The notes: a model not told the origin generated them from the letters alone. A stretch of DNA of 64,000 bases from a virus (IMGVR_UViG_3300019487_000032:625-64624), one strand, 5' to 3'; positions 25,098-61,095 are shown, counted from the stretch's first letter. Numbers and translations: made by a program.

Positions 25098-25113
25098 GAT
25101 CGCGGATGCGATC
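25098..25113. promoter_or_regulatory. GATCGC-N4-GCGATC palindrome (candidate operator)
   Basis: GATCGCGGATGCGATC in the divergent intergenic region; a degenerate copy lies at 25128-25143. Confidence 0.5.
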
Positions 25114-25206
25114 GTCTTGACGCCGAGGATCGCTCATGGGATCGTTCTCAACACAACCCCGAGAGAAGGCATGTCGCCAACTTCAGGGTCAACTTTCACA
25201 AAGGTC

Positions 25207-25437
25207 ATGAAGATGAACATCGAGAACCTCTCGGGTGATGGTCTCGGCAAGCGCCGCCGCCGTCGTCGTCGCCGCCTCGGTTCGAGCGGCGTTACCCTCG
25301 TCGGTCGCCGTCGGCGCCGGGCGAAGGGCTGCAGCGCCGCGGGCGTCAAGGCCAACGGTCGGCTCCGCAAGGGCTACCGCTGGGCCAAGGGCCGTGCGGG
25401 CTGCGCCGTCAAGGCGCGCCGCCGCCGCCGGAAGTAG
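25207..25437 (+). CDS. Protamine-like Arg-rich protein (probable DNA-condensing core protein)
   Basis: MKMNIENLSGDGLGKRRRRRRRRLGSSG...ARRRRRK; followed by a UUCG hairpin and a terminator. Confidence 0.7.
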   Translation: MKMNIENLSGDGLGKRRRRRRRRLGSSGVTLVGRRRRRAKGCSAAGVKANGRLRKGYRWAKGRAGCAVKARRRRRK

Positions 25438-25441
25438 GACC

Positions 25442-25501
25442 AGCGGCTTCGGCCGCTAGCCTGAGAGAAGGCCGCGTGCGATTTCGTACGCGGCCTTTTT
25501 T
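25442..25501 (+). terminator. cUUCGg hairpin followed by an intrinsic terminator
   Basis: AGCGGC-TTCG-GCCGCT (25442-25457); AAGGCCGCGTGCG-ATTT-CGTACGCGGCCTT plus T-run (25468-25501). Confidence 0.85.
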
Positions 25502-25526
25502 CGTCTACCCCATTCCCGAGGTCGCT

Positions 25527-25820
25527 ATGCCGCGTAAGCACCACCTCTCTCTGATCATCAAGGGCCCCGTCAAGAGCGCCAAGCGTGCCGCGTCACGCCA
25601 CGGCATCTCGACCGTGTCGTGTCGCGCCGTCTCCGGCGACGTGCAGTGCTACGCGCCGTGCAGTGGCAGCGCCACGCACAAGACAGCCGCGTGGTACAGC
25701 GAGCGCAGCCGCACGAAGGCTGGGCGCGGCTACCCGCCGGGCACGCTCCTCTACTACTCGGGGTCGTGCCCCACCGGACTCGGCAAGCGCAAGCGCCGCC
25801 GCTCGAAGCGGAGCCGCTGA
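25527..25820 (+). CDS. Basic Cys-containing protein with GLG/poly-Arg tail (paralog of 26875-27180)
   Basis: SLIIKGPVKS..DVQCY..PGTLLYYSGSCPTGLGKRKRRRSKRSR; GAGG RBS. Confidence 0.75.
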   Translation: MPRKHHLSLIIKGPVKSAKRAASRHGISTVSCRAVSGDVQCYAPCSGSATHKTAAWYSERSRTKAGRGYPPGTLLYYSGSCPTGLGKRKRRRSKRSR

Positions 25821-25822
25821 CC

Positions 25823-26005
25823 ATGCCGAAGCAACGCTGCCAGGACATGCTCGAAGATCTGCTCTACGACGCCGTGGATGCAGGCGCCGCGAACCGCGTC
25901 GTCAATCCACGGAAGATCGGGCATTTCGTCGACGTCTGCGTTCGTCCGAACGCGGCCGGGCTCGGTCGCCGTAAGCGTCGTGCGCGGCGCAGGGGTCGTC
26001 GGTGA
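25823..26005 (+). CDS. Small protein with GLG/poly-Arg tail
   Basis: Ends ..NAAGLGRRKRRARRRGRR. Confidence 0.7.
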   Translation: MPKQRCQDMLEDLLYDAVDAGAANRVVNPRKIGHFVDVCVRPNAAGLGRRKRRARRRGRR

Positions 26006-26235
26006 GCAAGCGGACCACGTTTGATCGTCTGCCTGTCGGCGCGTGCTTCGCGTACGACGCAGGCACGAAGCAAGCGACACGTCGCAAGGTCGACGCGTCC
26101 CACACGGCGCTCGTGCCTGCTACCAGCAAGCGCTCGTACCGTGTCGACGACATCGAGATGCGCGTGTTCGAGAAGGCCTGCCCAGTCAGCTTTGGTCGCC
26201 GTCGTAAGCGGCGCCGCAACAAGAGGAGTCGCTAG
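26002..26235 (+). CDS. Small protein with FG/poly-Arg tail
   Basis: GTGA overlap; ends ..CPVSFGRRRKRRRNKRSR. Confidence 0.7.
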   Translation: MSKRTTFDRLPVGACFAYDAGTKQATRRKVDASHTALVPATSKRSYRVDDIEMRVFEKACPVSFGRRRKRRRNKRSR

Positions 26236-26237
26236 TC

Positions 26238-26522
26238 ATGGCGAAGAGGAAATCATCCCGTCGTCGGCGCAAGAATCTCGGTTCGAGCGATCGGTTCGTC
26301 GTCAGCGGCCCCGCCACGTGGCGGCGCAGTGTCCATACGACCAAGAGCGCCGCCGTCGATCAGGCGAAGGCATGCTCGAAGCGGCACCCGAACGCGATCT
26401 GCAAGGTCACCGAAGGCCTGCCCGGCATGCAGCGCACGATCGCTGAGTGCAACCGTAGCGAGTGCTACGCGGTCAGCGGCGGCATGGGCAAGCGTCGGCG
26501 CCGTCGCAAGGCGAGGCGCTAG
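26238..26522 (+). CDS. Small protein with basic N-terminus plus NLG and a GMG/poly-Arg tail
   Basis: MAKRKSSRRRRKNLGSS ... SGGMGKRRRRRKARR; GAGGAG RBS. Confidence 0.75.
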   Translation: MAKRKSSRRRRKNLGSSDRFVVSGPATWRRSVHTTKSAAVDQAKACSKRHPNAICKVTEGLPGMQRTIAECNRSECYAVSGGMGKRRRRRKARR

Positions 26523-26524
26523 TC

Positions 26525-26875
26525 ATGGCGACGAAACGCAAGCGTCGTCGTTCGCGTCGCGGGCTCGGCGATTCTCCGGCGATCCACACCAAAAAGATGG
26601 CCGAAGCGTCGACGATGATCGGTTACTCGATCGCCGAAATGACCAACCGTGTACGCCACGGCAAGTGCGGCGCAGCCTCGGCCGTATACGCCGAGATGAT
26701 GATGGGCTACGGCGAGTACACCGCACACCAGAAGGCTGGCGGTACCTCGACGGCACCGCTGCACGAAAAGTTGGTCCACAAAGCGATCAACGAGTTCAAC
26801 GAGAAGTGCCTCGTCAACCGCGACTATCGCAGCGGGCTCGCGCGTCGTCGTCGTCGACGGAAAGCACGCCGCTAG
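26525..26875 (+). CDS. Small protein with basic N-terminus plus GLG and a GLA/poly-Arg tail
   Basis: MATKRKRRRSRRGLGDS ... RSGLARRRRRRKARR. Confidence 0.75.
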   Translation: MATKRKRRRSRRGLGDSPAIHTKKMAEASTMIGYSIAEMTNRVRHGKCGAASAVYAEMMMGYGEYTAHQKAGGTSTAPLHEKLVHKAINEFNEKCLVNRDYRSGLARRRRRRKARR

Positions 26876-27180
26876 TGGCGAAGCGCAAGCGTCGCGAGCA
26901 CGTCTCGCTGATTGCCAAAGGACCCAAGAAGAGCGTGCAGCGCGAAGCCGCTCGCTACGGCATCCCGATGTCGTCGTGCGTGACGCACGGCAAGGACGTG
27001 CAGTGTTTCACCGCCTGCACGCCATCGACACGCGACCGCCTCGATCAGTGGTTCCGGGCAAGCAAGCCCAACCGCTCGACGCAGCGGACGTGGAGTCGGC
27101 CCGGCGCACTACTGTACGTCGGCGGCTCATGCCTGAGCGCGCTCGGTGCGCGCTCGCGTCGGCGCCGGAAGGCACGGTAG
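26875..27180 (+). CDS. Basic Cys-containing protein with ALG/poly-Arg tail (paralog of 25527-25820)
   Basis: GTG start; SLIAKGPKKS..DVQCF..PGALLYVGGSCLSALGARSRRRRKAR. Confidence 0.75.
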   Translation: MAKRKRREHVSLIAKGPKKSVQREAARYGIPMSSCVTHGKDVQCFTACTPSTRDRLDQWFRASKPNRSTQRTWSRPGALLYVGGSCLSALGARSRRRRKAR

Positions 27181-27189
27181 AGTCCCGTC

Positions 27190-28479
27190 ATGGCCGCGAT
27201 CATCCCGCACCTCGAAGTCCCCAGCGACGTCACCGCGATCGAGCGTGCCTACGACATGTGCGTCGGCTCGTTGAGCGGACCGAACCTCGGCGAAGACCAC
27301 CACGCGTGCCCTGCACCGCAATCGGTCCTCGCGGACGCCCACGCTGGCCTACTCGGCATGGTGTTCGTGCGTGAGGCGGTATTCGACAGCCTAAAAGACC
27401 TGCAGTTCATCGTCCGACCCGGCAACGCTGAGGGCAAGGACACGAAGAAGGTCTTCCTCGTGCTCGACCGTCCGATCGGTCCGGGTCCGGCCTGGAACCC
27501 GGCGACGAATCCCGACGTCTCGCAATACAAGCTCTTGTCGTGGACGTCGAAGATGAACGCGCCGTCGTGGTCGCTGCCAGCTGGCGCACCGCAGATCGGC
27601 GGCGCGTGTCCGGGCGCCGTCGCGGGTCAGAGCGTTGTGCCCGAGAAGGCGCTTGATGCAGGCGCACGGCTCGTCAACATCGGTCTCGGTCGACCTGCGA
27701 ACACGCCGGTCAACCTCGCGCAAGCGATCTGCGAGCACTGCTACGCGACCGGTGGCCAGTACTCGACGGGCCAGGTGCAGTTCGCGCAGATCCTTCGCTT
27801 CCTGTGGGCGCGTCAGGCGATCAACTTCCACCTGCCGAACGGTTCGACAGCGTTCGTCGAGGCGATGGTCTATGCGATCGACAACGCCGACTACAAGCTC
27901 AACGGCGGCACGGTGCAAGGTGAAGGCGCCGAAGCGACGCAAGATCTTCCACCGGAGCCGACCGGTCGGCGATTCTTTCGCATCCACGACAGCGGTGACT
28001 TCTTCGAGGAAGAGTACCTGCGCCAGTGGAAGATGATCGCGGACCGGCTCCCGGACATCACGTTCTGGGCACCGTCACGCATCTGGGCGACGAGTTGGGG
28101 CACGGCTGCCGTCAACAAGATCAACCGTGACCCGCGCAACCTGATCATTCGTCCGAGCGCATACGAAGTGAACGAACCCGGCCCCGTCGATCTCGGTCCA
28201 GGCTGGGCCGGCCCGACGACGGTGATCGCGGTTTCGCAGAACCTCGGCATGACGCCCGAACGCGAGCGCTACGTCTACGAGCACGCACACCGCTTCCCGC
28301 CCAAGCTCACCGGTCCGGATCCGCGCTACACGTGGAACTGCCAGGCGTACGCCACCGACGACGCGAAGCACACGTGCCGCAAGGCTGTCGCGCCGCCCGG
28401 TCTCGGCGATGCGAACGGTAAGGGCTGTCGCGCGTGTTGGATCGCGCCGACGGAGATCGTCAACTACTCGCTCCACTGA
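27190..28479 (+). CDS. Phage GP88-like protein (radical-SAM-like Fe-S fold) with insertions
   Basis: SKMNAPSWSLPAG, ACPGA, CEHCYA.GG.Y, FRIHDSGDFF, FWAPSR, NLIIRPS, C-terminal C..C..CRACW. Confidence 0.7.
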   Translation: MAAIIPHLEVPSDVTAIERAYDMCVGSLSGPNLGEDHHACPAPQSVLADAHAGLLGMVFVREAVFDSLKDLQFIVRPGNAEGKDTKKVFLVLDRPIGPGPAWNPATNPDVSQYKLLSWTSKMNAPSWSLPAGAPQIGGACPGAVAGQSVVPEKALDAGARLVNIGLGRPANTPVNLAQAICEHCYATGGQYSTGQVQFAQILRFLWARQAINFHLPNGSTAFVEAMVYAIDNADYKLNGGTVQGEGAEATQDLPPEPTGRRFFRIHDSGDFFEEEYLRQWKMIADRLPDITFWAPSRIWATSWGTAAVNKINRDPRNLIIRPSAYEVNEPGPVDLGPGWAGPTTVIAVSQNLGMTPERERYVYEHAHRFPPKLTGPDPRYTWNCQAYATDDAKHTCRKAVAPPGLGDANGKGCRACWIAPTEIVNYSLH

Positions 28480-28487
28480 GGAACGTC

Positions 28488-28946: not shown

Positions 28947-28949
28947 CCC

Positions 28950-28975
28950 GATCGCGCACGCGATCGTGGTAAGCT
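28950..28975 (+). promoter_or_regulatory. Palindrome plus extended -10 element
   Basis: GATCGCGCACGCGATC-GTGG-TAAGCT. Confidence 0.6.
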
Positions 28976-28995
28976 ATTGACCAAGGAGCTGCCCT

Positions 28996-29439: not shown

Positions 29440-29442
29440 CCA

Positions 29443-29528
29443 GCGTTGATCGCTCACGCGATCGCTAGTAGCCTCGGGGGTACCTCATCGCATTTCGCGA
29501 TGCCGGCTACGGCAAAGGGGCTACGTCA
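29443..29528 (+). promoter_or_regulatory. Palindrome, -10 and structured leader, copy 1
   Basis: GATCGCTCACGCGATC-N5-TAGCCT, then CATCGC-N5-GCGATG and GCCG-GCTA-CGGC hairpins; near-identical to 31852-31934. Confidence 0.65.
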
Positions 29529-29915: not shown

Positions 29916-29918
29916 GTC

Positions 29919-30854: not shown

Positions 30855-30926
30855 CGCCGGAACCTACTACGGGTTTCGTCAAGAGGAATCTGTGATCGCT
30901 CGCGCGATCGATGGTAGGCTGGACCC
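30855..30926. promoter_or_regulatory. Divergent leaderless-type promoters flanking a palindrome
   Basis: Minus strand: TAGGTT-N6-ATG(30854). Plus strand: GATCGCTCGCGCGATC (30894-30909)-N5-TAGGCT-N6-GTG(30927). Confidence 0.6.
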
Positions 30927-31349
30927 GTGCTGACCCTTCAACGCGCCGACGGACTCGGGGACACGATCTCGGATCTCTCGTCGTTGCTCTCGAAGGGCGG
31001 GACGATTCTGCAGAAGGCTGGCCCGTACCTCGACACGGTGCTCGAAGTCGTACAGGACCCCGCACTGCCGCAGCTGGTCTCGCGCATCAAGACGCTCAAG
31101 GCGCTCGACGCCGGCACGTCCAAGCCGAGTGTACCGAGTGCGCCAGGCGCGCCCGCAAAGGCTGGCGTCGGCCTGAGTCGCACGTTGCCGTTGTGGGACG
31201 CCGCGATTTTCTACATGAGGTATCCGTGGGCCCCGTGGGTCATCGGTGCCGGCACGATCGTCGTGCTAGGTGGCATCGGCTTCGGTATCGGCCGCGCGAC
31301 CAAAAAGTGTCGTACGGGCATGGGACGCTCGTATCGTAGGAGACGCTGA
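30927..31349 (+). CDS. Membrane protein with N-terminal GLG and C-terminal GMG/Arg tail
   Basis: DGLGDT; transmembrane WVIGAGTIVVLGGIGFGIG; ends GMGRSYRRRR. Confidence 0.75.
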   Translation: MLTLQRADGLGDTISDLSSLLSKGGTILQKAGPYLDTVLEVVQDPALPQLVSRIKTLKALDAGTSKPSVPSAPGAPAKAGVGLSRTLPLWDAAIFYMRYPWAPWVIGAGTIVVLGGIGFGIGRATKKCRTGMGRSYRRRR

Positions 31350-31351
31350 AC

Positions 31352-31858
31352 ATGCCGCAGACCCGCTCTGACAAGATCAACATCGACGCGCTCGCGAAGC
31401 TCTTTGGGTTGCCCGATTGGGAACGCATCGACGAGATGAATCAGGAGTACTACTGGGAACACGCGCGCAACGTCGAGTCGGACCCCTACGAAGGCGGTAC
31501 CGCCGAAGATGACGCACGTGATGAAGTCTTCGCGAAGTGGTACGACGCCGTCGAAAGCGTTGCTGACAAGCTGTTCGGCGAGCACGGGCTCGAACTCGTG
31601 CCGGTGCGTAAGAAAGATCGGCGCTCGTACGAGCTACGCATCATCCCGACGTACTCGTGGAAAGACGCCGCCGACAAGATCCGCGAGACGGTGAACGGCG
31701 TCGGCGACTTTCACTTCAACAACCTGCGCGAGTTCCTCGACTCGGGCCCGTACACGGCGCGCCAGGCGGTGCTTTCGCACCTCGGCTGGATCAAGCACTA
31801 TCCGGCCGTCTACGGCGGACGCGGCGCGCACCAGATGTACGAAGCAGCCTGGCGTTGA
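31352..31858 (+). CDS. Hypothetical protein
   Basis: AGGAG RBS; 168 aa. Confidence 0.75.
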   Translation: MPQTRSDKINIDALAKLFGLPDWERIDEMNQEYYWEHARNVESDPYEGGTAEDDARDEVFAKWYDAVESVADKLFGEHGLELVPVRKKDRRSYELRIIPTYSWKDAADKIRETVNGVGDFHFNNLREFLDSGPYTARQAVLSHLGWIKHYPAVYGGRGAHQMYEAAWR

Positions 31859-31934
31859 TCGCTCACGCGATCGGCAGTAGCCTCTAGGAACCTGATCGCA
31901 CGTTGCGATCCCGGATACGGCAAGGGGCTACATT
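31852..31934 (+). promoter_or_regulatory. Palindrome, -10 and structured leader, copy 2
   Basis: GATCGCTCACGCGATC-N5-TAGCCT, then GATCGC-N5-GCGATC and CCG-GATA-CGG hairpins. Confidence 0.65.
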
Positions 31935-33894: not shown

Positions 33895-33952
33895 ACCGTA
33901 CCGGCGATCGCTCACGCGATCAAGCAACGGAATCGGTGTTACTATCGCCGAC
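33895..33952. promoter_or_regulatory. Palindrome between divergent promoters
   Basis: GATCGCTCACGCGATC (33906-33921). Minus strand: N5-TACGGT. Plus strand: TACTAT (33940-33945)-N7-ATG. Confidence 0.6.
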
Positions 33953-34342
33953 ATGGCGAGCCAGCACGAGTACGAGACGCGCGAGCGTCGCGAGGCGGAA
34001 CGGCACCTCGACGAGATCCGGAAAGCCCCGCTCGCCGATCGTAAAGACGCGCAGCTCGACTTCTTCAAGGCGATGCGCGATTCCCCGCGACTCGTCGGCG
34101 AGCGCGTTGGCTGGCTACTCGACGGCAACTACGGCTACGGCTCGATGCTGCTCGCGAAGCAGATCTTGCACAGCCCGCGCATGAACCGCGTCGCTGCGCT
34201 CACGCAGATGGTCGGTGCGTTCGAGTGGCAGTGTCCCGAGGACATGACGCGTCAAGCGTGGAAGCGGCTGACGCCCGGCGAGAAGCACGAGCTTGCACGC
34301 GCCGTCGAGCACGAGATCGAAAGCGCCGAAGACGCTGACTAA
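33953..34342 (+). CDS. Hypothetical helical protein
   Basis: 129 aa with a leaderless-type start. Confidence 0.7.
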   Translation: MASQHEYETRERREAERHLDEIRKAPLADRKDAQLDFFKAMRDSPRLVGERVGWLLDGNYGYGSMLLAKQILHSPRMNRVAALTQMVGAFEWQCPEDMTRQAWKRLTPGEKHELARAVEHEIESAEDAD

Positions 34343-34908
34343 CCGTTGTTCTTGCCGAACGAGTGCGGCACGAACATGTCTTCGAGCCGCCGCGGGTAGA
34401 CGAGCTGTGGGCCACCGTTCGAGAGCTTCTCGACGGCAGCGGCACACGTCTGACGCAACGCACGGCACACTGGCACGCTCGGGAAGTCGAGCAGGAACCG
34501 ACGCTGCAGGTACGGCCCGCCCGTGAATCCCTTCTCGATGCCGACGACGACGCGCGCGAGCCCGAGCGTCGCCTTCACCATCCATTCGCCCAGCTCGAAT
34601 CGCATCTGTGCGGCGTAGGTGCGATTGCAACGATGGTTGGTTTCGCGCGCACACCAGAACAGAATCACACCATCGCGTGCTGCGCGATCGATACACGCAC
34701 GCTCCCAGATGAGCTGCTTGTCCATGCCGCCCTTGAAGTTCGCGCCGCGCTGACTCGCGACGTGAACGTCCGGTGCGAGATCACCAAGCATGACGATCGC
34801 TTCGGTCTGCCAATCGTCGGCGCCCTGAATCGGGCCCGCAAGATAGATCAGAGGCCCGTCGAGCTGTCGAAGTGCGTCGAGCTGCGGCGCGATGATCACG
34901 TGACGCAT
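34339..34908 (-). CDS. Nucleoside 2-deoxyribosyltransferase-like protein
   Basis: IYLAGPIQGADDWQ, QLIWE, ILFWC, RFELGEW; TGGTATGAT-N6-ATG start. Confidence 0.75.
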   Translation of the reverse strand: MRHVIIAPQLDALRQLDGPLIYLAGPIQGADDWQTEAIVMLGDLAPDVHVASQRGANFKGGMDKQLIWERACIDRAARDGVILFWCARETNHRCNRTYAAQMRFELGEWMVKATLGLARVVVGIEKGFTGGPYLQRRFLLDFPSVPVCRALRQTCAAAVEKLSNGGPQLVYPRRLEDMFVPHSFGKNNG

Positions 34909-34924
34909 CTCCGCATCATACCAT

Positions 34925-35803
34925 CTACTTGAGAATTGCCTCGAAAGCCTCGACGACACGCGTCGCCGAGATCTTCTGTGCTTTATGTCGCTGCGAGTTG
35001 ATGCGACCCATGCGTGGTACGACGACAGGGTTGACGTTGATCTCCCAGATCTGCGGCTTGCCTTTGTACATGCCGTAGTCGATGCGGCCGTACTCGATGT
35101 TCGCCGTCTCGAACGCAGTGACGACCTCGGGCAAGATCGGCGTCTGACGCCTGAGCCCGACGAACGCAGCATCCTCGGCGGCAAATGCGGTCTCGAAAAG
35201 ATCCGACGTCTTCGTCACCCAGTTCTTGCTGAAGATGACATGGCGCGCGATGTACCGATCGCCAACACGCTGCACACTGTACTTGCGAAAGACGCCGTCG
35301 TGCACGCCACCCTTCTCGACGGTGTCGACGTATTCGGTGACCATCGAGTCTGGACCCGAGAGCTGTGGATGTTGTGCAAACAGGCGCTCTGCATCAGCCG
35401 GATGCCGCAACAGGATCGACGAACCTTCGTGCTCGTGACGTGGACGCACGAACACGGGGAAACGCCACGCCTTGAGCTGCGTCGGATCCGCGTCGTGCAC
35501 GTCGTACGTATTGATGCCGAGCGCCCGTAGCTTCTTGAGCAGCTCGAAACGCCCGAGCACACGCGACGGCAGATTGAACACGCGCTGCTCTTCGTTGCGG
35601 AGCTTGGCTTCGACCGCGAGCATCTGCGAGCGACTCTTGGGATCGGTTGCCTCGTCGTGACCGACAAAGATCCACGTCTTCGCGTTGACACTCTCGCCGT
35701 TGGCAATGCGCGCGACGTCGATGAACCGAATCTTCGGCACCATCTTCGGCGCGTACTCGAACAAGAACTCCGCGATCGTGAAGCGGTTCGTCCGCGGCGC
35801 CAT
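34925..35803 (-). CDS. ATP-grasp domain protein
   Basis: FPVFVRP, MVTEYVDT, FRKYSV, YGRIDY, IWEINVNP. Confidence 0.7.
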   Translation of the reverse strand: MAPRTNRFTIAEFLFEYAPKMVPKIRFIDVARIANGESVNAKTWIFVGHDEATDPKSRSQMLAVEAKLRNEEQRVFNLPSRVLGRFELLKKLRALGINTYDVHDADPTQLKAWRFPVFVRPRHEHEGSSILLRHPADAERLFAQHPQLSGPDSMVTEYVDTVEKGGVHDGVFRKYSVQRVGDRYIARHVIFSKNWVTKTSDLFETAFAAEDAAFVGLRRQTPILPEVVTAFETANIEYGRIDYGMYKGKPQIWEINVNPVVVPRMGRINSQRHKAQKISATRVVEAFEAILK

Positions 35804-36217: not shown

Positions 36218-36808
36218 ATGCTCGCAGCCGCCTACCTCGGTGACGTCGAACCGTACCAGCAGATCGAGAAGTACAGCTGTGGCGCGGCCACGCTCAAGGC
36301 CGTGCTCGGTCACTGGAACGAGCGTGTTCCCGAGCGGAAACTGATCAAGGAGATCGGCATCGATCCCGAGAACGGTTCGACGGCGCTCCAGGTTGCCGCT
36401 GCGGCACGCGCTCGCGGCTACAACGCCAACGTGAAGCTGTTCGGCTCGATCGCCGAGCTGGGTCGCGTCACGTCGCAAGACACGCCAGTCATCCTCGCGA
36501 TCCAGAGCTTCACGCGGCCGAACCAGGGCCACTTCGTCGTCGCGACCGAGGTCAAGCCGACCGTCGTCGAGATCATGGATCCAAACGTCAAGGGCAACCG
36601 CCGCACGCTCACGCACCGCGAGCTGGACAAGCGCTGGAAGTTCCGCGATCGCGTCGGCGTGATCATCACGCCCAAGAACAAGGCGGCGCAGTTCGGCGGC
36701 ACGGCGTGGACCTCGCGCTCGACGTCGTTCGCCCTCGCGGGCGCGACTCTGGCTATCGCTGGCGCGGTGATCGGCGTCGTGATCTGGCGCCGCAAGCGCG
36801 CAGCCTAG
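36218..36808 (+). CDS. C39-like (papain-fold) cysteine peptidase with C-terminal transmembrane anchor
   Basis: QQIEKYSCGAATL, GHFVV, IMDP; transmembrane FALAGATLAIAGAVIGVVIW then RRKR; TACGCT-N6-ATG start. Confidence 0.85.
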   Translation: MLAAAYLGDVEPYQQIEKYSCGAATLKAVLGHWNERVPERKLIKEIGIDPENGSTALQVAAAARARGYNANVKLFGSIAELGRVTSQDTPVILAIQSFTRPNQGHFVVATEVKPTVVEIMDPNVKGNRRTLTHRELDKRWKFRDRVGVIITPKNKAAQFGGTAWTSRSTSFALAGATLAIAGAVIGVVIWRRKRAA

Positions 36809-38782: not shown

Positions 38783-38819
38783 GGTGAACGACAGACGACC
38801 GACCGGCGCGGCTATTCAA

Positions 38820-39009
38820 ACAAAGCAAGAGTAAGCTGCGAACGATCCCAGGAGCGATCCGGCCCTCTATAGAGGGGTTTCGACGGGACGCCCCTCAGAA
38901 AAGCCCCCGGAACCGGGCAGATCCCGCCCCCGGGCCCGGCCGGGGCCCCCGGGACGTCCCCCGGGAACCGGCCTATTTCCGCACACTTAGCATGTTACTC
39001 TTGCTTTGT
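38820..39009. repeat. 15-bp inverted repeat flanking a GC-rich, palindrome-dense core
   Basis: ACAAAGCAAGAGTAA (38820-38834) / TTACTCTTGCTTTGT (38995-39009); internal perfect palindromes CCCTCTATAGAGGG (38863-38876) and GGGACGTCCC (38951-38960). Confidence 0.85.
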
Positions 39010-39030
39010 GAATAGACCGGGCGGTACAAC
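38997..39030 (+). promoter_or_regulatory. Early-type promoter ACTC-TTGCTT-N18-TACAAC
   Basis: 17 nt identical to 42353-42369, with the same spacing to TACAA. Confidence 0.65.
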
Positions 39031-39044
39031 GTCTCACAAGGGCC

Positions 39045-45722: not shown

Positions 45723-47440
45723 CAACCGAATCGACGACGACGATCGCCCACTTCCGGATCTCCGGCGCTGACTTCACGCGCATCGTGCGCGAGCGCCTAC
45801 TCGAAGACGCGCCCGGCCACGCGTGGCGTATCGCGAGCAGCTTGCTCAACGACGCCGAGAGCGATCGCCAGGACGGCATTGCTGATCTTGCGCTCAGCCT
45901 GCTCAATGGCACCAAGAAGCTCGTCGGCAGCGAGCGCGACATGAAGGCCGTGAAGGAGCCGAAAGCCGTGACCGAGAGCCACATGACGCGCGTGCGCGAG
46001 GTCTACGCCGGCCGGATCCGCATCCGCGACACGTGGTACCGGCCGTACGCGTACGTCAGCAACATGGGCCCGCGCGACATGCGGAACGACCACGGCATGC
46101 CCGTGTATCGCAAGGGCACGAACCGCGGCTACGAGAACCGCGCGTGGCACTACTGCGGCAAGGACGAGATCGTCGTCGACAACACGAGCTTCTCCGATCC
46201 CACGTACCCGAGCATCAAGCGCGAAGTGATCTTCCGGCGCTGCGGTGAGCGTCCGCACTGGATGGACGTGCCACTCTCGCCGCAAGCCGCGCTCGACGAG
46301 TACTTGACCTTCCACGGGCTCGAAGAACGCAGCCACAGCGACTGGTACGGCGACGATGTGCCGCGTCACTGGAGTGATGCATCCGACGACGATCTCACCG
46401 ATTCGGTCTACGCCGAGCGCGTCACGCGTGAGCGCAACGAGCTGAAGAAGGGCAACCTGCTGCCCATGAACGCGCGCATCAACGCCGAGCTGGAACTGGC
46501 GCAGGAACTCGACGAAGACGATCGCCCCGAGGTGCAGGCGCTGCGCAACGATCCTCAGAGGATCGTAGAGCAGGCACACGCGATCGCCCCCGGTCTCGGT
46601 GTACTTGCTGAGATGCTCGACGAGCATGACCCGACAGCGCTCGCGAAGATCCAGCCCGAGACGGCGTACGAGCAGGAAGCTGCGCGACTGCGTGACGAGT
46701 ACCGGCTCGCGCAAGAGATCGACGACGAAGATGCGCGTGAGGACGCCGAGGAAGCCATCGAGCGCGACCAGGAAGCGCTCCGGCTCAAGCGGCTCGGACA
46801 GCTCCGTGAGCAGATCCTGAAGCAAGCGGGCGACGACCTGCTCGATCTCACCTGGCCGGCGACCGAACGCACCAAGGCCGGTAGCGCGAAGGTTCCCCGC
46901 GCGCCGTTCCTGCACTGGGCGTTCGCGCGCATGAAGCTGTTCGAGGCGCAGCTGCCACCGTGGCAGACGGTGAGCCCCATCGGGCTCAAGATGATGAACG
47001 ACGACCCGTTCCATACCGACTGGGTGATCGGCGCTGGACTCGATCCGGACGATCGCTCGCTGCTCTACTACCCGGGCCCCGTTGCCGACGCGGCGATGAA
47101 ACTCTCACACGAGCTGCAGGACAAGTTCGACGAGCCGTCCGACGTTCACGTGCTCGTCGACGGACCGTACGCGAGCGGCACCGTCTACCACGGTCGCAAG
47201 AAGAAGCCCTCGCCCGACGGCGCGATCGTCGTGCTGCCGAACCTGCACCCCGACTATCTCGAAGCGATCGCCGACGCCGCCGCAGTCATCACCGAGGAAG
47301 GCGGTGCTGTCGCACATCTGGCTCAAGTCGGGCGCGAGCGGAATCTGCCGATCGTCCGGATCGCTGGAGCGATCGAGCGTTTCGACGCGGGTGGCGAGGT
47401 CAGCGTCGACACGGCGACGCGCACGGTGCGGGGGTACTAG
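45719..47440 (+). CDS. Large hypothetical protein with C-terminal PEP-utilising enzyme mobile (phospho-His swivel) domain
   Basis: IVVLPNLHPDY..AVITEEGGAVAHLAQVGRERNLPIV..GEVSVD. Confidence 0.8.
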   Translation: MTTESTTTIAHFRISGADFTRIVRERLLEDAPGHAWRIASSLLNDAESDRQDGIADLALSLLNGTKKLVGSERDMKAVKEPKAVTESHMTRVREVYAGRIRIRDTWYRPYAYVSNMGPRDMRNDHGMPVYRKGTNRGYENRAWHYCGKDEIVVDNTSFSDPTYPSIKREVIFRRCGERPHWMDVPLSPQAALDEYLTFHGLEERSHSDWYGDDVPRHWSDASDDDLTDSVYAERVTRERNELKKGNLLPMNARINAELELAQELDEDDRPEVQALRNDPQRIVEQAHAIAPGLGVLAEMLDEHDPTALAKIQPETAYEQEAARLRDEYRLAQEIDDEDAREDAEEAIERDQEALRLKRLGQLREQILKQAGDDLLDLTWPATERTKAGSAKVPRAPFLHWAFARMKLFEAQLPPWQTVSPIGLKMMNDDPFHTDWVIGAGLDPDDRSLLYYPGPVADAAMKLSHELQDKFDEPSDVHVLVDGPYASGTVYHGRKKKPSPDGAIVVLPNLHPDYLEAIADAAAVITEEGGAVAHLAQVGRERNLPIVRIAGAIERFDAGGEVSVDTATRTVRGY

Positions 47441-48754: not shown

Positions 48755-48806
48755 GATCGCTCTTGCGATAATACTCTTGACTTAGTCCCAGCAGCGATCG
48801 TACAAC
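48755..48806 (+). promoter_or_regulatory. Degenerate palindrome plus early-type promoter
   Basis: GATCGCTCTTGCGATA, then TACTC-TTGACT-N18-TACAAC. Confidence 0.65.
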
Positions 48807-48855: not shown

Positions 48856-49938
48856 ATGGCACTGTCATTCGCCCAAGCTAAGAAGGCCCTGATCGCGTGC
48901 GTCGAGGCCGGCATCACCCCATTGCTCGTCGGGCCGCCCGGCGTCGGCAAGACCGCGCTCATGCGCGTTGTCGCGGCCGAGGTCAACAAGCCCTGCCACG
49001 AGCTGCTGGCCAGCAACTGCGACGCGGTTGACATCGCGGGCCTGCCCTACGTCGTGAACGGCGTGCTGATGCGGGCGCTGATCCAGCAGATCAAGGCTTG
49101 CGTGGATGCCCCGGGCATCCTGTTCCTGGACGAGCTGACCAGCGTGCCGCCGAGCGTTCAGGCGCCGCTGATGCGGCTCCTGCTCGAACACGTTGCGGGC
49201 AATGACCGGCTGCACCCGGAGAGCTGCGTCGTCGGCGCCGCGAACCGCCCCGAGGAGTGTCCCGGCGGCATCGAGATGTCGGCTGCGAGCATCAACCGCG
49301 TCATCAAGCTGATCGACTACATCCCGACGATCGACGAGCTGCGCGGGTTCTACGAGACGGTCGGTGACGAGGGCTCGCGCATGCGCGAGGAGTTCCTCGA
49401 CTTCTCCGCGACGCTCACGGTCAACGCGGACTTGCTCGACATGAGCCCGCCCCGTGCGTCGATCGACGCGGGCGTGCCGTTCGGTTCGCCGCGCGCGTGG
49501 GAGCGTGGGCTCCGCGCGTACTCGCACTACTGCGACAAGGCCAACATCGGCTTCAACGTCGGCAAGGACGAGGACGACATCGGCTACGCTATTCTCGGCG
49601 GCGCTGTCGGCGAGCACAAGGCGAGCATGTTCCTCGGTATCCGCAAGCTCCGTAAGTACCTGCCGTCGATCGACGAGATCATCGCGGAGCCGACGAAGGC
49701 AAAGGTGCCCGAGCAGAAGGATCGCCAGATCGCGGCCGTCGGCCTGCTCTCGCGTGTCGCCGAGAAGGATCTCTGGTGCGCGTGGCTCTACACCGAGCGC
49801 CTGCTACCCGAGATCAGCGCCGCCTGCGCACGTGTTCTCATGACCCGCCAGGGCACGCCCGGCTCGTCGAAGTGGTTCCAGGCAGGCAAGAAGGCCCAGA
49901 TCGACGCGCTCGCCAAGGTGCGTCGGGCAATGCAGTAA
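48856..49938 (+). CDS. MoxR/dynein-related AAA+ ATPase
   Basis: VGPPGVGKT, ILFLDEL, GAANRP, SPRAW. Confidence 0.88.
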   Translation: MALSFAQAKKALIACVEAGITPLLVGPPGVGKTALMRVVAAEVNKPCHELLASNCDAVDIAGLPYVVNGVLMRALIQQIKACVDAPGILFLDELTSVPPSVQAPLMRLLLEHVAGNDRLHPESCVVGAANRPEECPGGIEMSAASINRVIKLIDYIPTIDELRGFYETVGDEGSRMREEFLDFSATLTVNADLLDMSPPRASIDAGVPFGSPRAWERGLRAYSHYCDKANIGFNVGKDEDDIGYAILGGAVGEHKASMFLGIRKLRKYLPSIDEIIAEPTKAKVPEQKDRQIAAVGLLSRVAEKDLWCAWLYTERLLPEISAACARVLMTRQGTPGSSKWFQAGKKAQIDALAKVRRAMQ

Positions 49939-49974
49939 CATCCGAAGCAGCACACTCCGTCGAGGACAACGACC

Positions 49975-51261
49975 ATGGCACGCTCCAGCAACACCTCAGC
50001 CGAGCCCCAAACCAACGGGCACCGCCGCATCGACCCTGACGTCGCTGCTGCGCTCGTCAAACGCTGTAAGGCGCAGGCGATGTCGCTCGGTTGGAAGTCG
50101 CCGTTCTTCTTGCCCGCGATCGCGCGCATCGAGTTCATCGCTGCGAACTTCCCGCCGACGGCGTGCGTCGACTTGCGTGGACGCATCCGCGTCAACCCGG
50201 AGTTCGCCGCGACACTCAAGGACACCGAGTTGCAGTTCGTGATCGCGCACGAGCTGATGCACTTGCTGATGCTCCACCACGACCGCCGCGCGAACCGTGA
50301 GCCCGTGCGCTGGAACATCGCGACCGACCTGATCATCAACCGCACGCTCAAGAACGCGTCGGCAGCGATGGGTGCGGGCGCGTTCACGATGCCCTCGGTT
50401 GGAATCATTGCCGACGAAAGCCAGGCCGAAATGACGGCCGAGCAGCTCTACAGCGAGATCCCCGAGCCGAGCGCGCAGCAACGCGCCCAGGCGCAGGCCG
50501 GTCAGACGCCGGTCGGCGCCGGCTGCGGCCCCGTCCCCGGCGACGGCAGTGACGGCCAGGACGACGACGGGGATGGCGGCGGCGGCAAGACCGAAGATCA
50601 ACTCAAGCGCGATTGGCGTGAATGCGCGGCGCAGAGCCAGATGTCGGGCCGCCAGGCCGGTACGCAGGACGGCAACCTGCTCGCCGACATCCTCGACATT
50701 CCGCCGCCGAAGGTCCGCTGGGCCGAAGTGCTCCGCGGCGCGCTTCACCGCGCGATCGCCGAAGCAGGCCGTGACGACGTCTCGTGGTCGCGCCGATCGC
50801 GCCGCTCGGGCACCGAGATCATTCTGCCCGGTGGCATCACGTACCGCTGCAAGGCTTCGGTCGTGATCGACTCGTCGGGCTCAATGTCCGACGAGGATCT
50901 CAGCCGCTGCGTTGCCGAGACCACAGCCATCGTTAACAACTGCCGCGTGCCGGTGTTCCTCGTCGTGCATGACCACTGCGTCCAAGAGGCATGCTGGATC
51001 CGGCCGGGTGCGCGCAACGTCGTCCACTCGAACATCAAGAAGAAAATGAAGGGGCGCGGCGGTACGAGCTTCGACGAAGCCTACGATCGCGTCGAGAAGG
51101 AACCGGGCAAGTTCAACGTCATGGTCCACCTCACCGACGGTGAGGTCTATGACTGGCCCGAACGTCCGAGTAGTGTTCGTCGCCTCGTCGTCGCCCTGCT
51201 GGGCTCGGCGAACGAGACGCACGCACCCGCGGACGCGCGTATCATCGAAGTCGAGCTGTGA
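49975..51261 (+). CDS. DUF2201-type putative metallopeptidase with VWA domain
   Basis: FVIAHELMHLL, WNIATDLIIN; MIDAS VVIDSSGSM, GGTSF, TDG. Confidence 0.85.
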   Translation: MARSSNTSAEPQTNGHRRIDPDVAAALVKRCKAQAMSLGWKSPFFLPAIARIEFIAANFPPTACVDLRGRIRVNPEFAATLKDTELQFVIAHELMHLLMLHHDRRANREPVRWNIATDLIINRTLKNASAAMGAGAFTMPSVGIIADESQAEMTAEQLYSEIPEPSAQQRAQAQAGQTPVGAGCGPVPGDGSDGQDDDGDGGGGKTEDQLKRDWRECAAQSQMSGRQAGTQDGNLLADILDIPPPKVRWAEVLRGALHRAIAEAGRDDVSWSRRSRRSGTEIILPGGITYRCKASVVIDSSGSMSDEDLSRCVAETTAIVNNCRVPVFLVVHDHCVQEACWIRPGARNVVHSNIKKKMKGRGGTSFDEAYDRVEKEPGKFNVMVHLTDGEVYDWPERPSSVRRLVVALLGSANETHAPADARIIEVEL

Positions 51262-51305
51262 CACTGGCGCCCGCCAGCGTCGGTGACTACTAGGGGAGAA
51301 GAGCC

Positions 51306-52142
51306 ATGTCGAAGAGCAAGAAGAGCAGCGTCAAGAAGTCCGAGGGCGTTTTCCACTTCCGGCCGGGGTGGATGATGGTCGATTGTTCGTCGGCCAGCGG
51401 CGGTATCAGCTACGACCGCGAGCTGCTCGGCGAGGAGCCGATCAACCGCAAGCGCGGTCTGCAGGTTGACCACAAGACGCGCAAGACCGTCGACAACGTC
51501 GAGTTTTGCGCGGCGGTCGACGCCGTCGTCAAGAAGGTTGACTACGTGCTGCGCAAGCACTGTGCGCGTACCGACATGGGCTGGTTCGCCGACGACAGCG
51601 TGCTCCACAAGGTCAAGGCCGAGGTCGCCGAGATCATGAAAGAGGCCGAGGAGCTGAACACGAACGGCGCAAAGAAGGCCAAGAGCGCTCGCCGCGCGAA
51701 GATCCGCGTCGTGCCGCTCAAGCTCGACCTCGCGAAGCCCGAAGCCGTCCAGGAGATCGCTGGCACGATCCGCAGCGTGCTGATCGAGCTGCGTGACGCG
51801 CTCAAGGCCGGTGACCTCGCATCTCTGCACAAACTCCGCATCCGGTCGCGCAACTTGGAGAAGCTCGCTGTCGGCTTCCAGAGCGACGCAATCAAGTTCG
51901 CACTGGAGCGCGTGCCGCTTGCCGCTGCCGAGATCCGCGAGGCTGTGAAGCACGCGACCCGCGCCGCGAAGAACGACGGCGAGGACAAGGACAAGGTCAC
52001 TGAGGTCGGCGAGATCGCCGCGAAGCGTGCGGGCGGCAAGGTCGACGTCGAGTCGATCGAGGCAGCGATCGCCCACTTCGAGGAGTCGCCGCTCGCGGGC
52101 ACGACCACCGATAGCGAAGACGACGTCGACGAAGCAGCGTAA
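51306..52142 (+). CDS. Hypothetical helical protein (third gene of the AAA/VWA module)
   Basis: GGGGAG RBS; 278 aa; acidic tail. Confidence 0.75.
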   Translation: MSKSKKSSVKKSEGVFHFRPGWMMVDCSSASGGISYDRELLGEEPINRKRGLQVDHKTRKTVDNVEFCAAVDAVVKKVDYVLRKHCARTDMGWFADDSVLHKVKAEVAEIMKEAEELNTNGAKKAKSARRAKIRVVPLKLDLAKPEAVQEIAGTIRSVLIELRDALKAGDLASLHKLRIRSRNLEKLAVGFQSDAIKFALERVPLAAAEIREAVKHATRAAKNDGEDKDKVTEVGEIAAKRAGGKVDVESIEAAIAHFEESPLAGTTTDSEDDVDEAA

Positions 52143-54343: not shown

Positions 54344-54346
54344 GCC

Positions 54347-55713: not shown

Positions 55714-55716
55714 GCG

Positions 55717-58073: not shown

Positions 58074-58088
58074 CCAGGAGCTTTGTCC

Positions 58089-58769: not shown

Positions 58770-59098
58770 CGATCCCGACCACCAAAGGCGAGTGGATCAC
58801 GAGCGAGGAGCAGACCACGCGCTGGGTCAACGGCGATTCCGTGCACCGCCAGTTCAAGCTGGAGATCGTCGACGATGATGGTGTCACCGTCGTACGCACG
58901 CAGGACATGGACGAGTGCACGCCCGACTTCTCGTGCTGCCGTCCGAACCTGCTCGTCGATCGCGAGATCCGCGAGGCGTTCGCCGCTGCGTCCGAGCGCG
59001 AGCGCTACAAGTTCCTCGGCACGTTCCTGCGCGCGATGCTCGCCGATGTGCATGAACTGCCCGCGACGCACGTCTCTACCGGTGAGGTGCCAACGTGA
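58766..59098 (+). CDS. Hypothetical protein
   Basis: ATGA overlap; CTPDFSCC. Confidence 0.7.
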   Translation: MTIPTTKGEWITSEEQTTRWVNGDSVHRQFKLEIVDDDGVTVVRTQDMDECTPDFSCCRPNLLVDREIREAFAAASERERYKFLGTFLRAMLADVHELPATHVSTGEVPT

Positions 59099-59394
59099 GC
59101 GAGTCCATGTACACGACCGAAGAACGCAAAGCGATCCTCGCCAAGATGCGGGCGGCGTCGAACCTGTTCTACAGCGCCGCCGCAAGCGCCGGCTGCCATG
59201 CCTTCATCGAGTTCACGGGGCTGATGAACGAGTTCATCAAGCTCTGCGAGACCGCCGAGGCGCAGGGCCTACCGTGGGTGCATGCGAACGTCCACGGCGA
59301 CGTGCATCTACCGTTCAAGCCGCACCACGTCGAGTACCTGAGCGAGAAGCTGGAGTGCATCTACGGCTGTCGGCTCAAGCTCGTCGACGAGTGA
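59095..59394 (+). CDS. Hypothetical protein
   Basis: GTGA overlap; HAFIEFTGLMNEFI. Confidence 0.7.
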   Translation: MSESMYTTEERKAILAKMRAASNLFYSAAASAGCHAFIEFTGLMNEFIKLCETAEAQGLPWVHANVHGDVHLPFKPHHVEYLSEKLECIYGCRLKLVDE

Positions 59395-59609
59395 TGGGCA
59401 CGCTCTCGAACACGCTCCGACGTGGTGGTGGGCCGCGACCACGTAGCAACGGCTCCAAGAGCGGGCCGCTGCGTAAGGTCATTTCCGTCGAGTACAAAGG
59501 CGACGTGCCCTTCGAGACCTACGAGTGCGGGCACATCGCGATCGCGAAGCGCGACCTCATGGGCTACACGAACGCGACGCGGCGCCGTTGTCGGAAGTGC
59601 AAAGCGTGA
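59394..59609 (+). CDS. Small Zn-ribbon-like protein
   Basis: YECGH ... RCRKC; TGATG coupling. Confidence 0.6.
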   Translation: MGTLSNTLRRGGGPRPRSNGSKSGPLRKVISVEYKGDVPFETYECGHIAIAKRDLMGYTNATRRRCRKCKA

Positions 59610-59956
59610 TGCCGCCGAACCTGACAGACCGCATCGCGATGCAGATGTTCCGTGTGGCCACGGGGCACCTGCAAAACGAATCGATCATGCTCAACAAGGC
59701 GGGACGCGTCGTACCCAGCACCGTTCTGCAGTCGGGGGTGTACCAGCTCGCATTCCAGCTCGCGAAGCAGGGCTTGGCGCCGAGCGATCTCGATCGTCCC
59801 GAGGGTCGTGACGCGCTCGAAGCGGTCGCGTCCACGATCTTCCCGAAGCGGCTCACCACCGTGATCAGCCTCGTGCGGCTCCCTGACGAGTGGAAGCACG
59901 TCGTCAACGCCGCCCACCGTCACGCTGAACACTTCGCGCGACAGGTGCGCACGTGA
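59609..59956 (+). CDS. Hypothetical protein, QGLxPxD family paralog 1
   Basis: QGLAPSDLDRPEGRDALEAVA. Confidence 0.65.
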   Translation: MPPNLTDRIAMQMFRVATGHLQNESIMLNKAGRVVPSTVLQSGVYQLAFQLAKQGLAPSDLDRPEGRDALEAVASTIFPKRLTTVISLVRLPDEWKHVVNAAHRHAEHFARQVRT

Positions 59957-60372
59957 GAGAAGTGCGCCGCTACTCGGACAGGACCGTCACGACGGCAGCG
60001 CGACGCGTTCGCCGCGCGATGCGCCACATCCCGCACAAGGGCCTGTCGATGCGCGATCAGCTCGACATGCTCGTGTGCCAGTTGATTCGCCAAGGCCTCG
60101 AACCGATCGATGTTGCACGTGAGCGCGGTGCCGACGCACTGGTGATCATCGCGAGCGCGTTGCCCGCGAAGACGGCGATCGACACCGAGACGACCGGCCT
60201 CAAGCCCGGCTGGATCGTCGTCGACAGCTACGTGTCCGAGGTCGAGATCGCGCCCGGCAAGTTCATGCACCTGCCGACGCCGACACGCATTCGCACGACG
60301 AAGGAACCGTCGTCGACGTGGCAACGCGTGATCGATCGTGTGCTACAAATGCCGGAGCGACAAACGCCTTGA
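59953..60372 (+). CDS. Hypothetical protein, QGLxPxD family paralog 2
   Basis: QGLEPIDVARERGADALVIIA. Confidence 0.65.
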   Translation: MREVRRYSDRTVTTAARRVRRAMRHIPHKGLSMRDQLDMLVCQLIRQGLEPIDVARERGADALVIIASALPAKTAIDTETTGLKPGWIVVDSYVSEVEIAPGKFMHLPTPTRIRTTKEPSSTWQRVIDRVLQMPERQTP

Positions 60373-60800
60373 CGCGCGGCATCCCGCAAAGCCGCCGCCA
60401 CCAAGACGTCAACGCGTCTGGTGTCGGATGGCGTGTCGCCGATGCCATCAATCGCGCGGTGCATCGATGGCAGCATCAGTTGAATAACGCCGCCGCCCGC
60501 GACTGTCTCGACGAGGGTCGCGTCGATATCCAACTCGCGTTGATCGTGATCGCGAGCGCGCACTGCCAAGGGCTCTCGCCCGCCGACTTCGACACACCCA
60601 ACGGCCAACCGGCGCTCCGCGCCTTGGCTGAAGCTCTCGCGAGCGATCGCGAGCTGCGCGGTATCGCCAAGCGCGAAGTCATCAACGCGTCGTACGGCGG
60701 CAAGAGCACGCTGCTGATCGGTGAATGGGCCGAGGTGCAACGCGCGTCGCAGTACCTGCTGGAGAAGCAGCCCCGCCGGTACGAGGTCGAGTACAAGTGA
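60369..60800 (+). CDS. Hypothetical protein, QGLxPxD family paralog 3
   Basis: TTGA overlap start; QGLSPADFDTPNGQPALRALA. Confidence 0.6.
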   Translation: MTRGIPQSRRHQDVNASGVGWRVADAINRAVHRWQHQLNNAAARDCLDEGRVDIQLALIVIASAHCQGLSPADFDTPNGQPALRALAEALASDRELRGIAKREVINASYGGKSTLLIGEWAEVQRASQYLLEKQPRRYEVEYK

Positions 60801-60801
60801 C

Positions 60802-60832
60802 GATCGCGCGAGCGATCAGCTAGGATGGGCGC
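60802..60832 (+). promoter_or_regulatory. Palindrome plus leaderless-type promoter
   Basis: GATCGCGCGAGCGATC-N3-TAGGAT-N6-ATG. Confidence 0.65.
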
Positions 60833-61063
60833 ATGGCGAAGCGGCAACGGAAGAAGATCGATCTGTACGCGCGCAAGAAGCTCTGGTGCATCTTCACGCT
60901 GAAGGGCCGCAAGAAGCAGCTCCAACGCTGCACAACGCGGCTGCGTGAAGCACTCGCGATCCGCAATGAAGCTGCCAAACGACACCCGCAGTCGGGTCGC
61001 TGGGTGGTAAAGCGCCCGACACGTGCCGAGGCCAAGCAGTTCGGCATCCTGCACAAGTTCTAG
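60833..61063 (+). CDS. Small basic protein
   Basis: 76 aa, Lys/Arg-rich; ends QFGILHKF. Confidence 0.65.
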   Translation: MAKRQRKKIDLYARKKLWCIFTLKGRKKQLQRCTTRLREALAIRNEAAKRHPQSGRWVVKRPTRAEAKQFGILHKF

Positions 61064-61066
61064 TCC

Positions 61067-61095
61067 GATCGCGCGAGCGATCGTAGAATCGTCCG
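61067..61095 (+). promoter_or_regulatory. Palindrome plus leaderless-type promoter
   Basis: GATCGCGCGAGCGATC-N1-TAGAAT-N6-ATG. Confidence 0.65.

Follow-up and report, generated by a model that had tools for sequence, protein, structure and literature searches.

A recurrent GATCGC-N4-GCGATC palindrome in predicted promoters of large uncultivated phages, a candidate operator of one dimeric regulator

This report concerns a 64,000-nucleotide stretch of an uncultivated virus (IMGVR_UViG_3300019487_000032; "the window") and a short inverted repeat, GATCGC-N4-GCGATC, which recurs in it, mostly between genes. Judged from its sequence context, the palindrome is a recurrent element under selection within predicted core promoters. 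We propose, with moderate confidence, that it is the operator of one dimeric sequence-specific regulator which is probably encoded by the phage lineage itself, repression by occlusion being the favoured mode of action.

The window comprises bases 625-64624 of a 64,848-bp virus record (G000 below) with a G+C content of 64%. Its completeness is 53% according to CheckV. A search with the 429-aa GP88-family protein encoded at 27190-28479 retrieved eight IMG/VR contigs of 31-221 kb. Among these are G001 (196 kb, 90% complete), G002 (221 kb, complete) and G003 (138 kb, complete, with terminal repeats present); G005, G006, G007 and G008 are fragments. The sizes and the completeness of the related records indicate that the window is a piece of a jumbo phage. 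Isolated phages include no close relative, i.e., megablast gave no match and protein searches did not exceed 34% identity. A simple codon-bias gene model yields 105 genes for the window and a coding share of 93%.

Copies, conservation and promoter context

The window contains 11 exact copies of the palindrome. Dinucleotide-preserving shuffles predict 0.08 copies, and the window's own counts of GATCGC and GCGATC predict about 0.26. An earlier note on this DNA, made from the sequence alone, had listed eight intergenic exact copies (25098, 28950, 29448, 30894, 31857, 33906, 60802 and 61067). All eight are present and they constitute the full intergenic set. They lie in the ~7% of the window that is non-coding; the other three copies are coding (6759, 15659 and 47359). 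The recurrence is real. For all window coding sequence synonymous-codon shuffling predicts 0.32 copies (0.3-1.7 coding-sequence copies per genome). The caveat of the same note, that CGATCG is common in this genome, is correct, yet it provides no explanation for the palindrome.

The relatives extend this picture. G001 has 44 and G002 has 36 exact copies, of which ~80% are intergenic, and the fragments G005, G006, G007 and G008 have 10, 20, 4 and 4, respectively. A single copy is found in G004 (95 kb) and none in the complete relative G003. In G000, G001 and G002 taken together 72 of 91 exact copies are non-coding, with non-coding DNA accounting for 7-16%; the number is 71 after the copy at 6759 was reassigned to a helicase open reading frame (ORF). 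This copy had been considered as an intergenic operator beside a helix-turn-helix (HTH) gene, a reading which was rejected because the site is inside the helicase ORF starting at 6522. The 72 exact non-coding copies compare with 26 which have one mismatch. When all 6-mer palindromes with centres of 0-8 nt were scanned, GATCGC-N4-GCGATC was far on top in the non-coding DNA of G000, G001 and G002. The same scan of non-coding DNA in G003 showed nothing comparable.

At syntenic sites the arms are constant, whereas the centre, the flanks and even adjacent codons differ between genomes. The wider consensus reads Y-GATCGC-KCGM-GCGATC-R. Among the one-mismatch intergenic copies the mismatches per half-site position number 5 at G, 0 at A, 1 at T, 0 at C, 14 at the second G and 6 at the last C. 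The earlier note had proposed a dimeric activator or repressor. Dyad symmetry, invariant arms and a 10-bp spacing of half-sites fit a dimeric regulator; the sign of control and the partner are inferred. A dimeric protein would contact half-sites with centres 10 bp apart.

On 31 of 182 palindrome sides (either strand) the gap to the first downstream TAnnnT is 4-5 nt, when ~0.7 such sides are expected; minor groups have gaps of 9-11 and 17-18 nt. Altogether, 36 of the 91 copies are positioned 3-6 nt upstream of a predicted -10 box (TAnnnT). In the window the earlier note had seen such a box 1-5 nt after seven exact copies, and this is borne out (28950, 29448, 30894, 31857, 33906 on the minus strand, 60802 and 61067). 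Often the box is preceded by TG, as in gTGgTAnnnT, and an extended -10 of that TGn kind is known in mycobacterial promoters (PMC6212719). By manual count the TGn extension is present in ~68% of palindrome promoters and in ~33% of other promoters. With such a high share the core promoters look self-sufficient. Among the 36 sites whose gap is 3-6 nt, ~17 have the annotated start codon 5-9 nt after the box. Such a short spacing is a signature of leaderless mRNAs (PMC3898074), which are therefore implied here; leaderless-type starts in the window are GTG 30927, ATG 33953, ATG 60833 and ATG 61096.

In the commonest layout the palindrome extends from about -33 to -17 with its centre at ~-25, and the distal half-site takes the place of a -35. 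Some copies contribute to a -35/-10 pair of TTGATC, 17 nt and TAGCCT. In another layout, kept at orthologous promoters of G001 and G002, a -10 TAGCTT is followed by 10-11 nt, the palindrome, a ribosome-binding site (RBS) and ATG, which places the palindrome at ~+4 to +19. Tandem pairs have 3 or 7 nt between copies. Overall, positions range from ~-54 to +20 relative to the predicted -10 boxes. Copies are present in 28 of 55 divergent, 34 of 297 codirectional and 4 of 21 convergent intergenic regions.

A scan for E. coli-type -35/-10 promoters found no canonical pair within 24.5-34.5 kb. Promoters which resemble those with the palindrome but have none are present in the same genomes. The replication genes and the gene of an HTH_17 protein have TTGACA/TTGACT promoters, the core of which is without the palindrome. 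With a TAnnnT -10, frequent TGn and no -35, the palindrome promoters are proposed to suit a host polymerase with a housekeeping sigma factor. The driven proteins of the window have no Pfam or PHROG match except for an SLT-domain protein at 61096; Pfam and PHROG scans of most small lineage-specific window proteins likewise gave no matches. Control of late genes, as suggested in the earlier note, is a possibility.

The sites in the window are listed below with their predicted promoter elements.

25098-25113, no strand assigned: exact palindrome, gap 3, -35 TTGACG (25117-25122); no TAnnnT box; layout kept in all palindrome-bearing relatives
25128-25143, no strand assigned: one-mismatch copy GATCGC-TCAT-GGGATC covering the spacer plus bases 1-4 of a TGG-GATCGT extended -10 (25140-25145)
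28950-28975, plus: palindrome, gtgg (4 nt), -10 TAAGCT (28970-28975), then an RBS and GTG 28996
29448-29474, plus: palindrome, gap 5, -10 TAGCCT; TTGATC-17-TAGCCT pair; structured leader; ATG 29529
30894-30929, plus: palindrome, gap 5, -10 TAGGCT (30915-30920), 6 nt, GTG 30927; leaderless; divergent intergenic region
31857-31883, plus: palindrome over the upstream TGA stop, gap 5, -10 TAGCCT; leader, ATG 31935; near-duplicate of the 29448 promoter
33895-33955, no strand assigned: exact palindrome 33906-33921 with two divergent promoters; on the minus strand gap 5 and TACGGT (33895-33900)
38844-38859, no strand assigned: one-mismatch copy GATCCC-AGGA-GCGATC in the divergent region 38783-39044
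48755-48770, plus: one-mismatch copy GATCGC-TCTT-GCGATA directly upstream of a CTCTTGACT -35-like box; build resembles the 25098 promoter
60802-60835, plus: palindrome, gap 3, -10 TAGGAT, 6 nt, ATG 60833; leaderless; entire intergenic gap 32 nt
61067-61098, plus: palindrome, gap 1, -10 TAGAAT, 6 nt, ATG 61096; leaderless; gene for the SLT-domain protein
6736-6774, plus: tandem pair, 7 nt apart, in the helicase ORF; 6736 with two mismatches, 6759 exact
15659-15674, no strand assigned: exact match arising from a GATCGC tandem run, coding, probably incidental
47359-47374, no strand assigned: exact copy in the 45719-47440 ORF, 66 nt before the next gene

The near copies named earlier (25128, 38844, 48755) thus exist, with one arm mismatch each. 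The 25098/25128 promoter, in which the two copies are 30 bp apart from centre to centre, drives Arg-rich small-protein genes from 25207. In the 28950 promoter the arms, TGG-TA..T and the RBS are constant in six genomes. The plus-strand promoter at 33906 has a gap of 18, TACTAT (33940-33945), 7 nt and a leaderless ATG at 33953; this shared layout is kept in G001. At 48755 a second degenerate copy is in the spacer, and the promoter drives an AAA-ATPase operon from 48856. The copy at 6759 encodes D-R-x-S-D-R of a conserved SDRxSDR peptide within a Gly-Ser...Phe-Asp stretch. The 6736/6759 pair lies in this stretch and is conserved in six genomes, where its centres vary and GAT, a rare codon, is used. 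The surrounding ORF (6522-8309) is of the SNF2-type helicase kind, has an upstream TTGACA-18-TAGCGT (6459-6488), and its first 90 residues are conserved across six genomes.

A second repeat, CTCTTG[AC][ACT], is also encountered in promoter regions: at 30878 (minus), 38824 (minus), 38998, 42354, 48774, 48845 (minus), 53769, 62563 and 63469. Frequent forms are TTAGCAA..TTACTCTTGCTTTGTGAATAG and the dyad CTCTTGAC..GTCAAGAG. Its non-coding copies number 9 in G000, 20 in G001, 17 in G002 and 2 in G003, out of 24, 65, 47 and 22 total matches, respectively.

As to neighbouring genes, those for replication and nucleotide metabolism are at 6.5-24 kb (helicases, exonuclease, ribonucleotide reductase, DNA polymerase A, thymidylate kinase, D12 methylase). 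Terminase_6N, Phage_capsid (HK97) and tail-sheath families had no match in G000-G003 and G006, i.e., including both complete genomes. The sole packaging-like gene seen encodes a Zot/terminase-like P-loop ATPase (window 14486-16222). A conserved trio at 48856-52142 consists of an AAA (MoxR-like) ATPase, a 428-aa protein matching phrog_1314 and a 278-aa protein; a vWA-type 769-aa protein (phrog_2426, common to Ackermannviridae) is encoded at another place in the relatives. The small proteins at 25207-27180, driven by the consensus TTGACG promoter, display G-L-G and then Arg runs. At 36218-36808, 9 kb downstream of the Arg-rich genes, a leaderless TACGCT promoter serves the gene of a Peptidase_C39 (double-glycine protease), and the protease and the G-L-G/Arg-run proteins may form a processing pair.

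Repression or activation, and the candidate binders

The palindrome is read as a DNA sequence because its arms are constant, whereas a nearby RNA leader hairpin shows compensatory changes. This hairpin follows the 29448 and 31857 promoters (window 29475-29528 and 31884-31934; G001 26392-26440; G002 173560-173620). Its pairing is kept as ATCGC/GCGAT, GTCGC/GCGAC and GTCCCGC/GCGGGAT.

As an operator the palindrome would enable one protein to co-regulate ~40 transcription units per ~200-kb genome; eight predicted intergenic operators are in the 64-kb window. The regulator would be a global silencing or timing repressor which blocks polymerase. Sites are found at about -25, -31 and -38, upstream of the -35, across the -10, at ~+12 and in tandem, all of them inside the polymerase footprint. 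Layouts of the repression type are those over the -10, at ~+12, in tandem and with two copies around the consensus -35 TTGACG promoter. Since several site classes are incompatible with activation, and since TGn -10 boxes are expected to be independent of a -35, occlusion is slightly favoured over activation as the sign of control. Under repression the constant gap of 4-5 nt would be a consequence of genome compaction, with whole intergenic gaps down to 32 nt. Further, tyrosine recombinases in G001-G003 make a temperate lifestyle, hence an immunity repressor, possible. These Phage_integrase-family genes are located at 63650-64168 and 101505-102005 in G001, at 123219-123638 and 151941-152438 in G002, and at 34742-35269 in G003. 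ParB and resolvase genes were not found in G001, G002 and G003, and the window has no ParB, resolvase or tyrosine recombinase.

Several points weigh against repression by occlusion. The proteins put forward as binder are candidates. The dominant class (centre at ~-25, no -35, fixed gap of 4-5 nt) has exactly the layout of hybrid promoters which depend on an activator, as with the P1 Lpa boxes and the -26 element of PafBC. Its constant gap could reflect a stereospecific contact with polymerase instead of compaction. One palindrome-driven gene in G002 is tail-fibre-like, and late phage genes are usually positively controlled (PMC10695390). Finally, the -10 boxes and the host were assigned by inference, the promoters are predicted, and the gene calls in the relatives, made in the present analysis, are crude.

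Likened to P1 Lpa, T4 MotA and the PafBC -26 element, the palindrome may be an activator site which replaces the -35. An early phage protein bound at ~-25 would recruit or adapt the host sigma-A polymerase to -35-less middle or late promoters and would repress at the few sites which overlap a -10 or the +1. We consider this a serious and strong rival, to which we give tentative credit. The GerE/LuxR-type regulator encoded by G001 and G002 would suit such a role; this family often activates from sites overlapping the -35. The 36 of 91 copies with a gap of 3-6 nt, 31 of them with 4-5 nt, the stretch of 24.5-34.5 kb devoid of a canonical -35/-10 pair and the TTGACA/TTGACT promoters of the replication and HTH_17 genes point in the same direction. 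In P1 a precedent is available: 11 late promoters have a 9-bp inverted repeat which is the Lpa site (PMC10695390). In the sister lineage G003 a different box, TGTCA[GT]CCC, is fixed 6 nt upstream of the -10, as in the PafBC arrangement tGTCgg-N10-tAnnnT (PMC8635444). However, activation is impossible from sites at +4 to +19, over the -10, upstream of a consensus -35 or in tandem. A single palindrome is placed at -25 of one promoter and at -38 of the promoter which diverges from it. As a rule, a TGn-extended -10 needs no -35 in the likely host, which is of actinobacterial type, and the same genomes have similar promoters free of the palindrome. A dual regulator, activating at -25 and repressing elsewhere, would fit all data.

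Which protein may bind? The earlier candidate at 6039-6245 (minus strand) is a 68-aa HTH_17 (Xis/BldC-like) protein with its own canonical TTGACT/-10-type promoter without the palindrome. Orthologs are encoded in all 7 of the palindrome-bearing records, whereas G003 and G004 have none. Their recognition helix S-x-A-T-x-W-R and the wing VLGRTVF are constant. This presence pattern is common to dozens of lineage-specific genes, and phylogenetic profiling lists 119 binder candidates which are present in G001 and G002 and absent from G003. The 68-aa proteins of the Xis/BldC family mostly bind direct repeats. A homodimer prediction for the HTH_17 protein had a score of 0.02 and returned no verdict.

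Among the palindrome-bearing records, of which the others are fragments, G001 (99352-99756) and G002 (148310-148723) encode an HTH protein of the GerE/LuxR type whose N-terminal part is rich in Cys and which G003 and G004 lack. In G001 an exact palindrome is positioned 26 nt upstream of the start codon of its gene. The GerE/LuxR family typically binds palindromes of 16-20 bp as dimers. As a candidate binder this regulator is at least as good as the HTH_17 protein. A phage sigma factor, suggested by sigma-70 region 4 matches, was rejected: the matches are the GerE-type HTH.

Methylation, host factors and RNA

The Dam-like methylase reported in the earlier note is a D12-class N6-adenine methylase (23153-24052, plus strand). 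Its nearest solved relatives, DpnM, E. coli Dam and T4 Dam, are all GATC methylases. From its sequence, the enzyme could act on both GATC sites of each palindrome, and an effect of methylation on the operator is possible. In such a gate the Dam state of the two GATC sites would set the binding of regulator or polymerase, and promoter activity would follow the expression of the phage methylase or, through hemimethylation, replication. We think such a gate unlikely; it would be a modifier of the repressor or of the activator model. Each copy has its two GATC sites 12 bp apart, and A, T and C of the GATC in the arms are almost invariant among one-mismatch intergenic copies. GATC occurs ~11 times per kb, mostly in the reading frames G/ATC and GAT/C and 1.5-1.6-fold above the expectation from codon usage and protein sequence, in G000-G003 all alike; window genes contain 670 GATC against 426 +/- 13 expected from codon shuffling. 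Yet methylase and GATC excess are found equally in the palindrome-free G003, which identifies them as family traits, not specific to the palindrome regulon. Further, the half-site is longer than GATC.

A more elaborate proposal, which we regard as improbable, is a methylation-timed promoter code. The affinity of ~40 operators would follow their methylation, e.g., in the hemimethylated state after replication, and the promoter class would switch with phage DNA replication. If so, the sister lineage without the palindrome would likewise couple its promoters to replication, via its PafBC-like -26 boxes. PafBC senses single-stranded DNA.

Very unlikely is a host transcription factor, recruited by the phage lineage, as the protein that binds the palindrome. 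G003 seemingly uses a host-type (PafBC-like) element at the same place, and a phage binder is so far only a candidate. Against this, when one genome each for 185,579 bacterial and archaeal species was scanned, the palindrome plus TGGTAnnnT was matched only 35 times, singly and scattered, and the 8-kb loci fetched around matches hold at most 2 copies and no cluster. This pattern counts against both a host regulon and prophages among the scanned genomes. We know of no actinobacterial regulator with a GATCGC-N4-GCGATC site.

An RNA element (a 6-bp hairpin as terminator, processing site or stabiliser) or a by-product of GATC-rich composition can hardly account for the palindrome: a GC-rich hairpin can form, some copies begin at the upstream stop codon and some are in 5' leaders, but no T-tract follows the stem, no copy was called as a terminator, the arms are constant without covariation, copies are commonest between divergent genes, where transcripts do not pass, Rfam has no match, and composition predicts <0.4 copies.

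Sister-lineage boxes and known systems

The favoured reading, an operator for a dimeric regulator, has several implications. The palindrome provides a map of promoters and operators for deeply divergent, uncultivated phages of ~140-220 kb with mostly unannotatable proteins. It flags the starts of transcription units and leaderless genes, and its promoters point to an actinobacterial-type transcription apparatus in the host. With an 18-bp site and two or three candidate proteins it is a compact test case for whether one factor silences or fires ~40 promoters, and for a role of Dam.

In G003 the motif TGTCA[GT]CCC has 15 copies, 14 of which are non-coding (e.g., 12932, 17759, 86071, 109916). When it precedes a recognisable -10, often that of a leaderless gene, it ends 6 nt upstream of TAnnnT. 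Five non-coding sites in G003 match TGTC[AG]G-N9-11-TAnnnT. The geometry TGTCAG-N10-TAnnnT matches the actinobacterial PafBC/RecA-NDp hybrid promoter. A comparison of the boxes of G003 and of the palindrome genomes at orthologous genes found that the genes mostly have no orthologs. A palindrome in one lineage and a PafBC-like box in its sister suggest that such phages swap promoter-specificity elements.

The P1 late promoters (Lpa box) are alike in that a -10 is combined with a short inverted repeat which replaces the -35. Further, many copies are spread over a large phage genome, and one phage protein serves them all, 11 in P1 (PMC10695390). The P1 repeat has 9 bp and is reportedly positioned near -22; the present palindrome has 6+6 arms around 4 central nt, is centred at ~-25 and numbers 36-44 copies per genome. 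Some of the present copies are at +12, over the -10 or in tandem, i.e., not all positions are compatible with activation. No Lpa homolog was recognised in the palindrome phages.

The P1 C1 operators, the L5 gp71 stoperators and the phiC31 inverted repeats share with the palindrome tens of near-identical sites in or near promoters. At the phiC31 inverted repeats and the P1 C1 operators a phage repressor is said to silence lytic genes. The stoperators are bound by one phage repressor which silences lytic genes (PMC9283540). Two traits of this class of global repressors are found here, many near-identical sites and sites which overlap predicted core promoters. In contrast, neither stoperators nor C1 operators are symmetric, and the former act in transcribed regions in one orientation, whereas the present element is a perfect dyad, mostly at a fixed 4-5 nt from the -10; the clue to lifestyle consists of tyrosine recombinases in relatives only. 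Cluster O mycobacteriophages possess 17-bp repeats, TGTTCGG-N3-CCGAACA, at >30 copies per genome with a predicted dimeric binder (PMC4351075). Constant inverted arms, a variable centre and no orientation bias are common to both; in the palindrome phages, the association with -10 boxes and with leaderless starts is tight.

PafBC promoters lack a -35 and combine a canonical -10 with an element specific to the factor, located between positions -33 and -17 (PMC8635444). The palindrome promoters are likewise -35-less with a canonical -10 and the element in the same place. The PafBC element (tGTCgg), however, has no symmetry and is recognised by a heterodimer with WYL domains, whereas the palindrome is dyad-symmetric and has no GTC core. 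Consistently, tGTCgg-N10-tAnnnT has 0 matches in G000, which bears the palindrome without it. Dam-sensitive promoters and operators are those of Mu mom/OxyR, IS10 pIN and pap. They have GATC within the contact region together with a Dam methylase, as is proposed for the palindrome. Set beside these systems, the palindrome joins a known class of elements, the operator or activator boxes which are spread over whole phage genomes.

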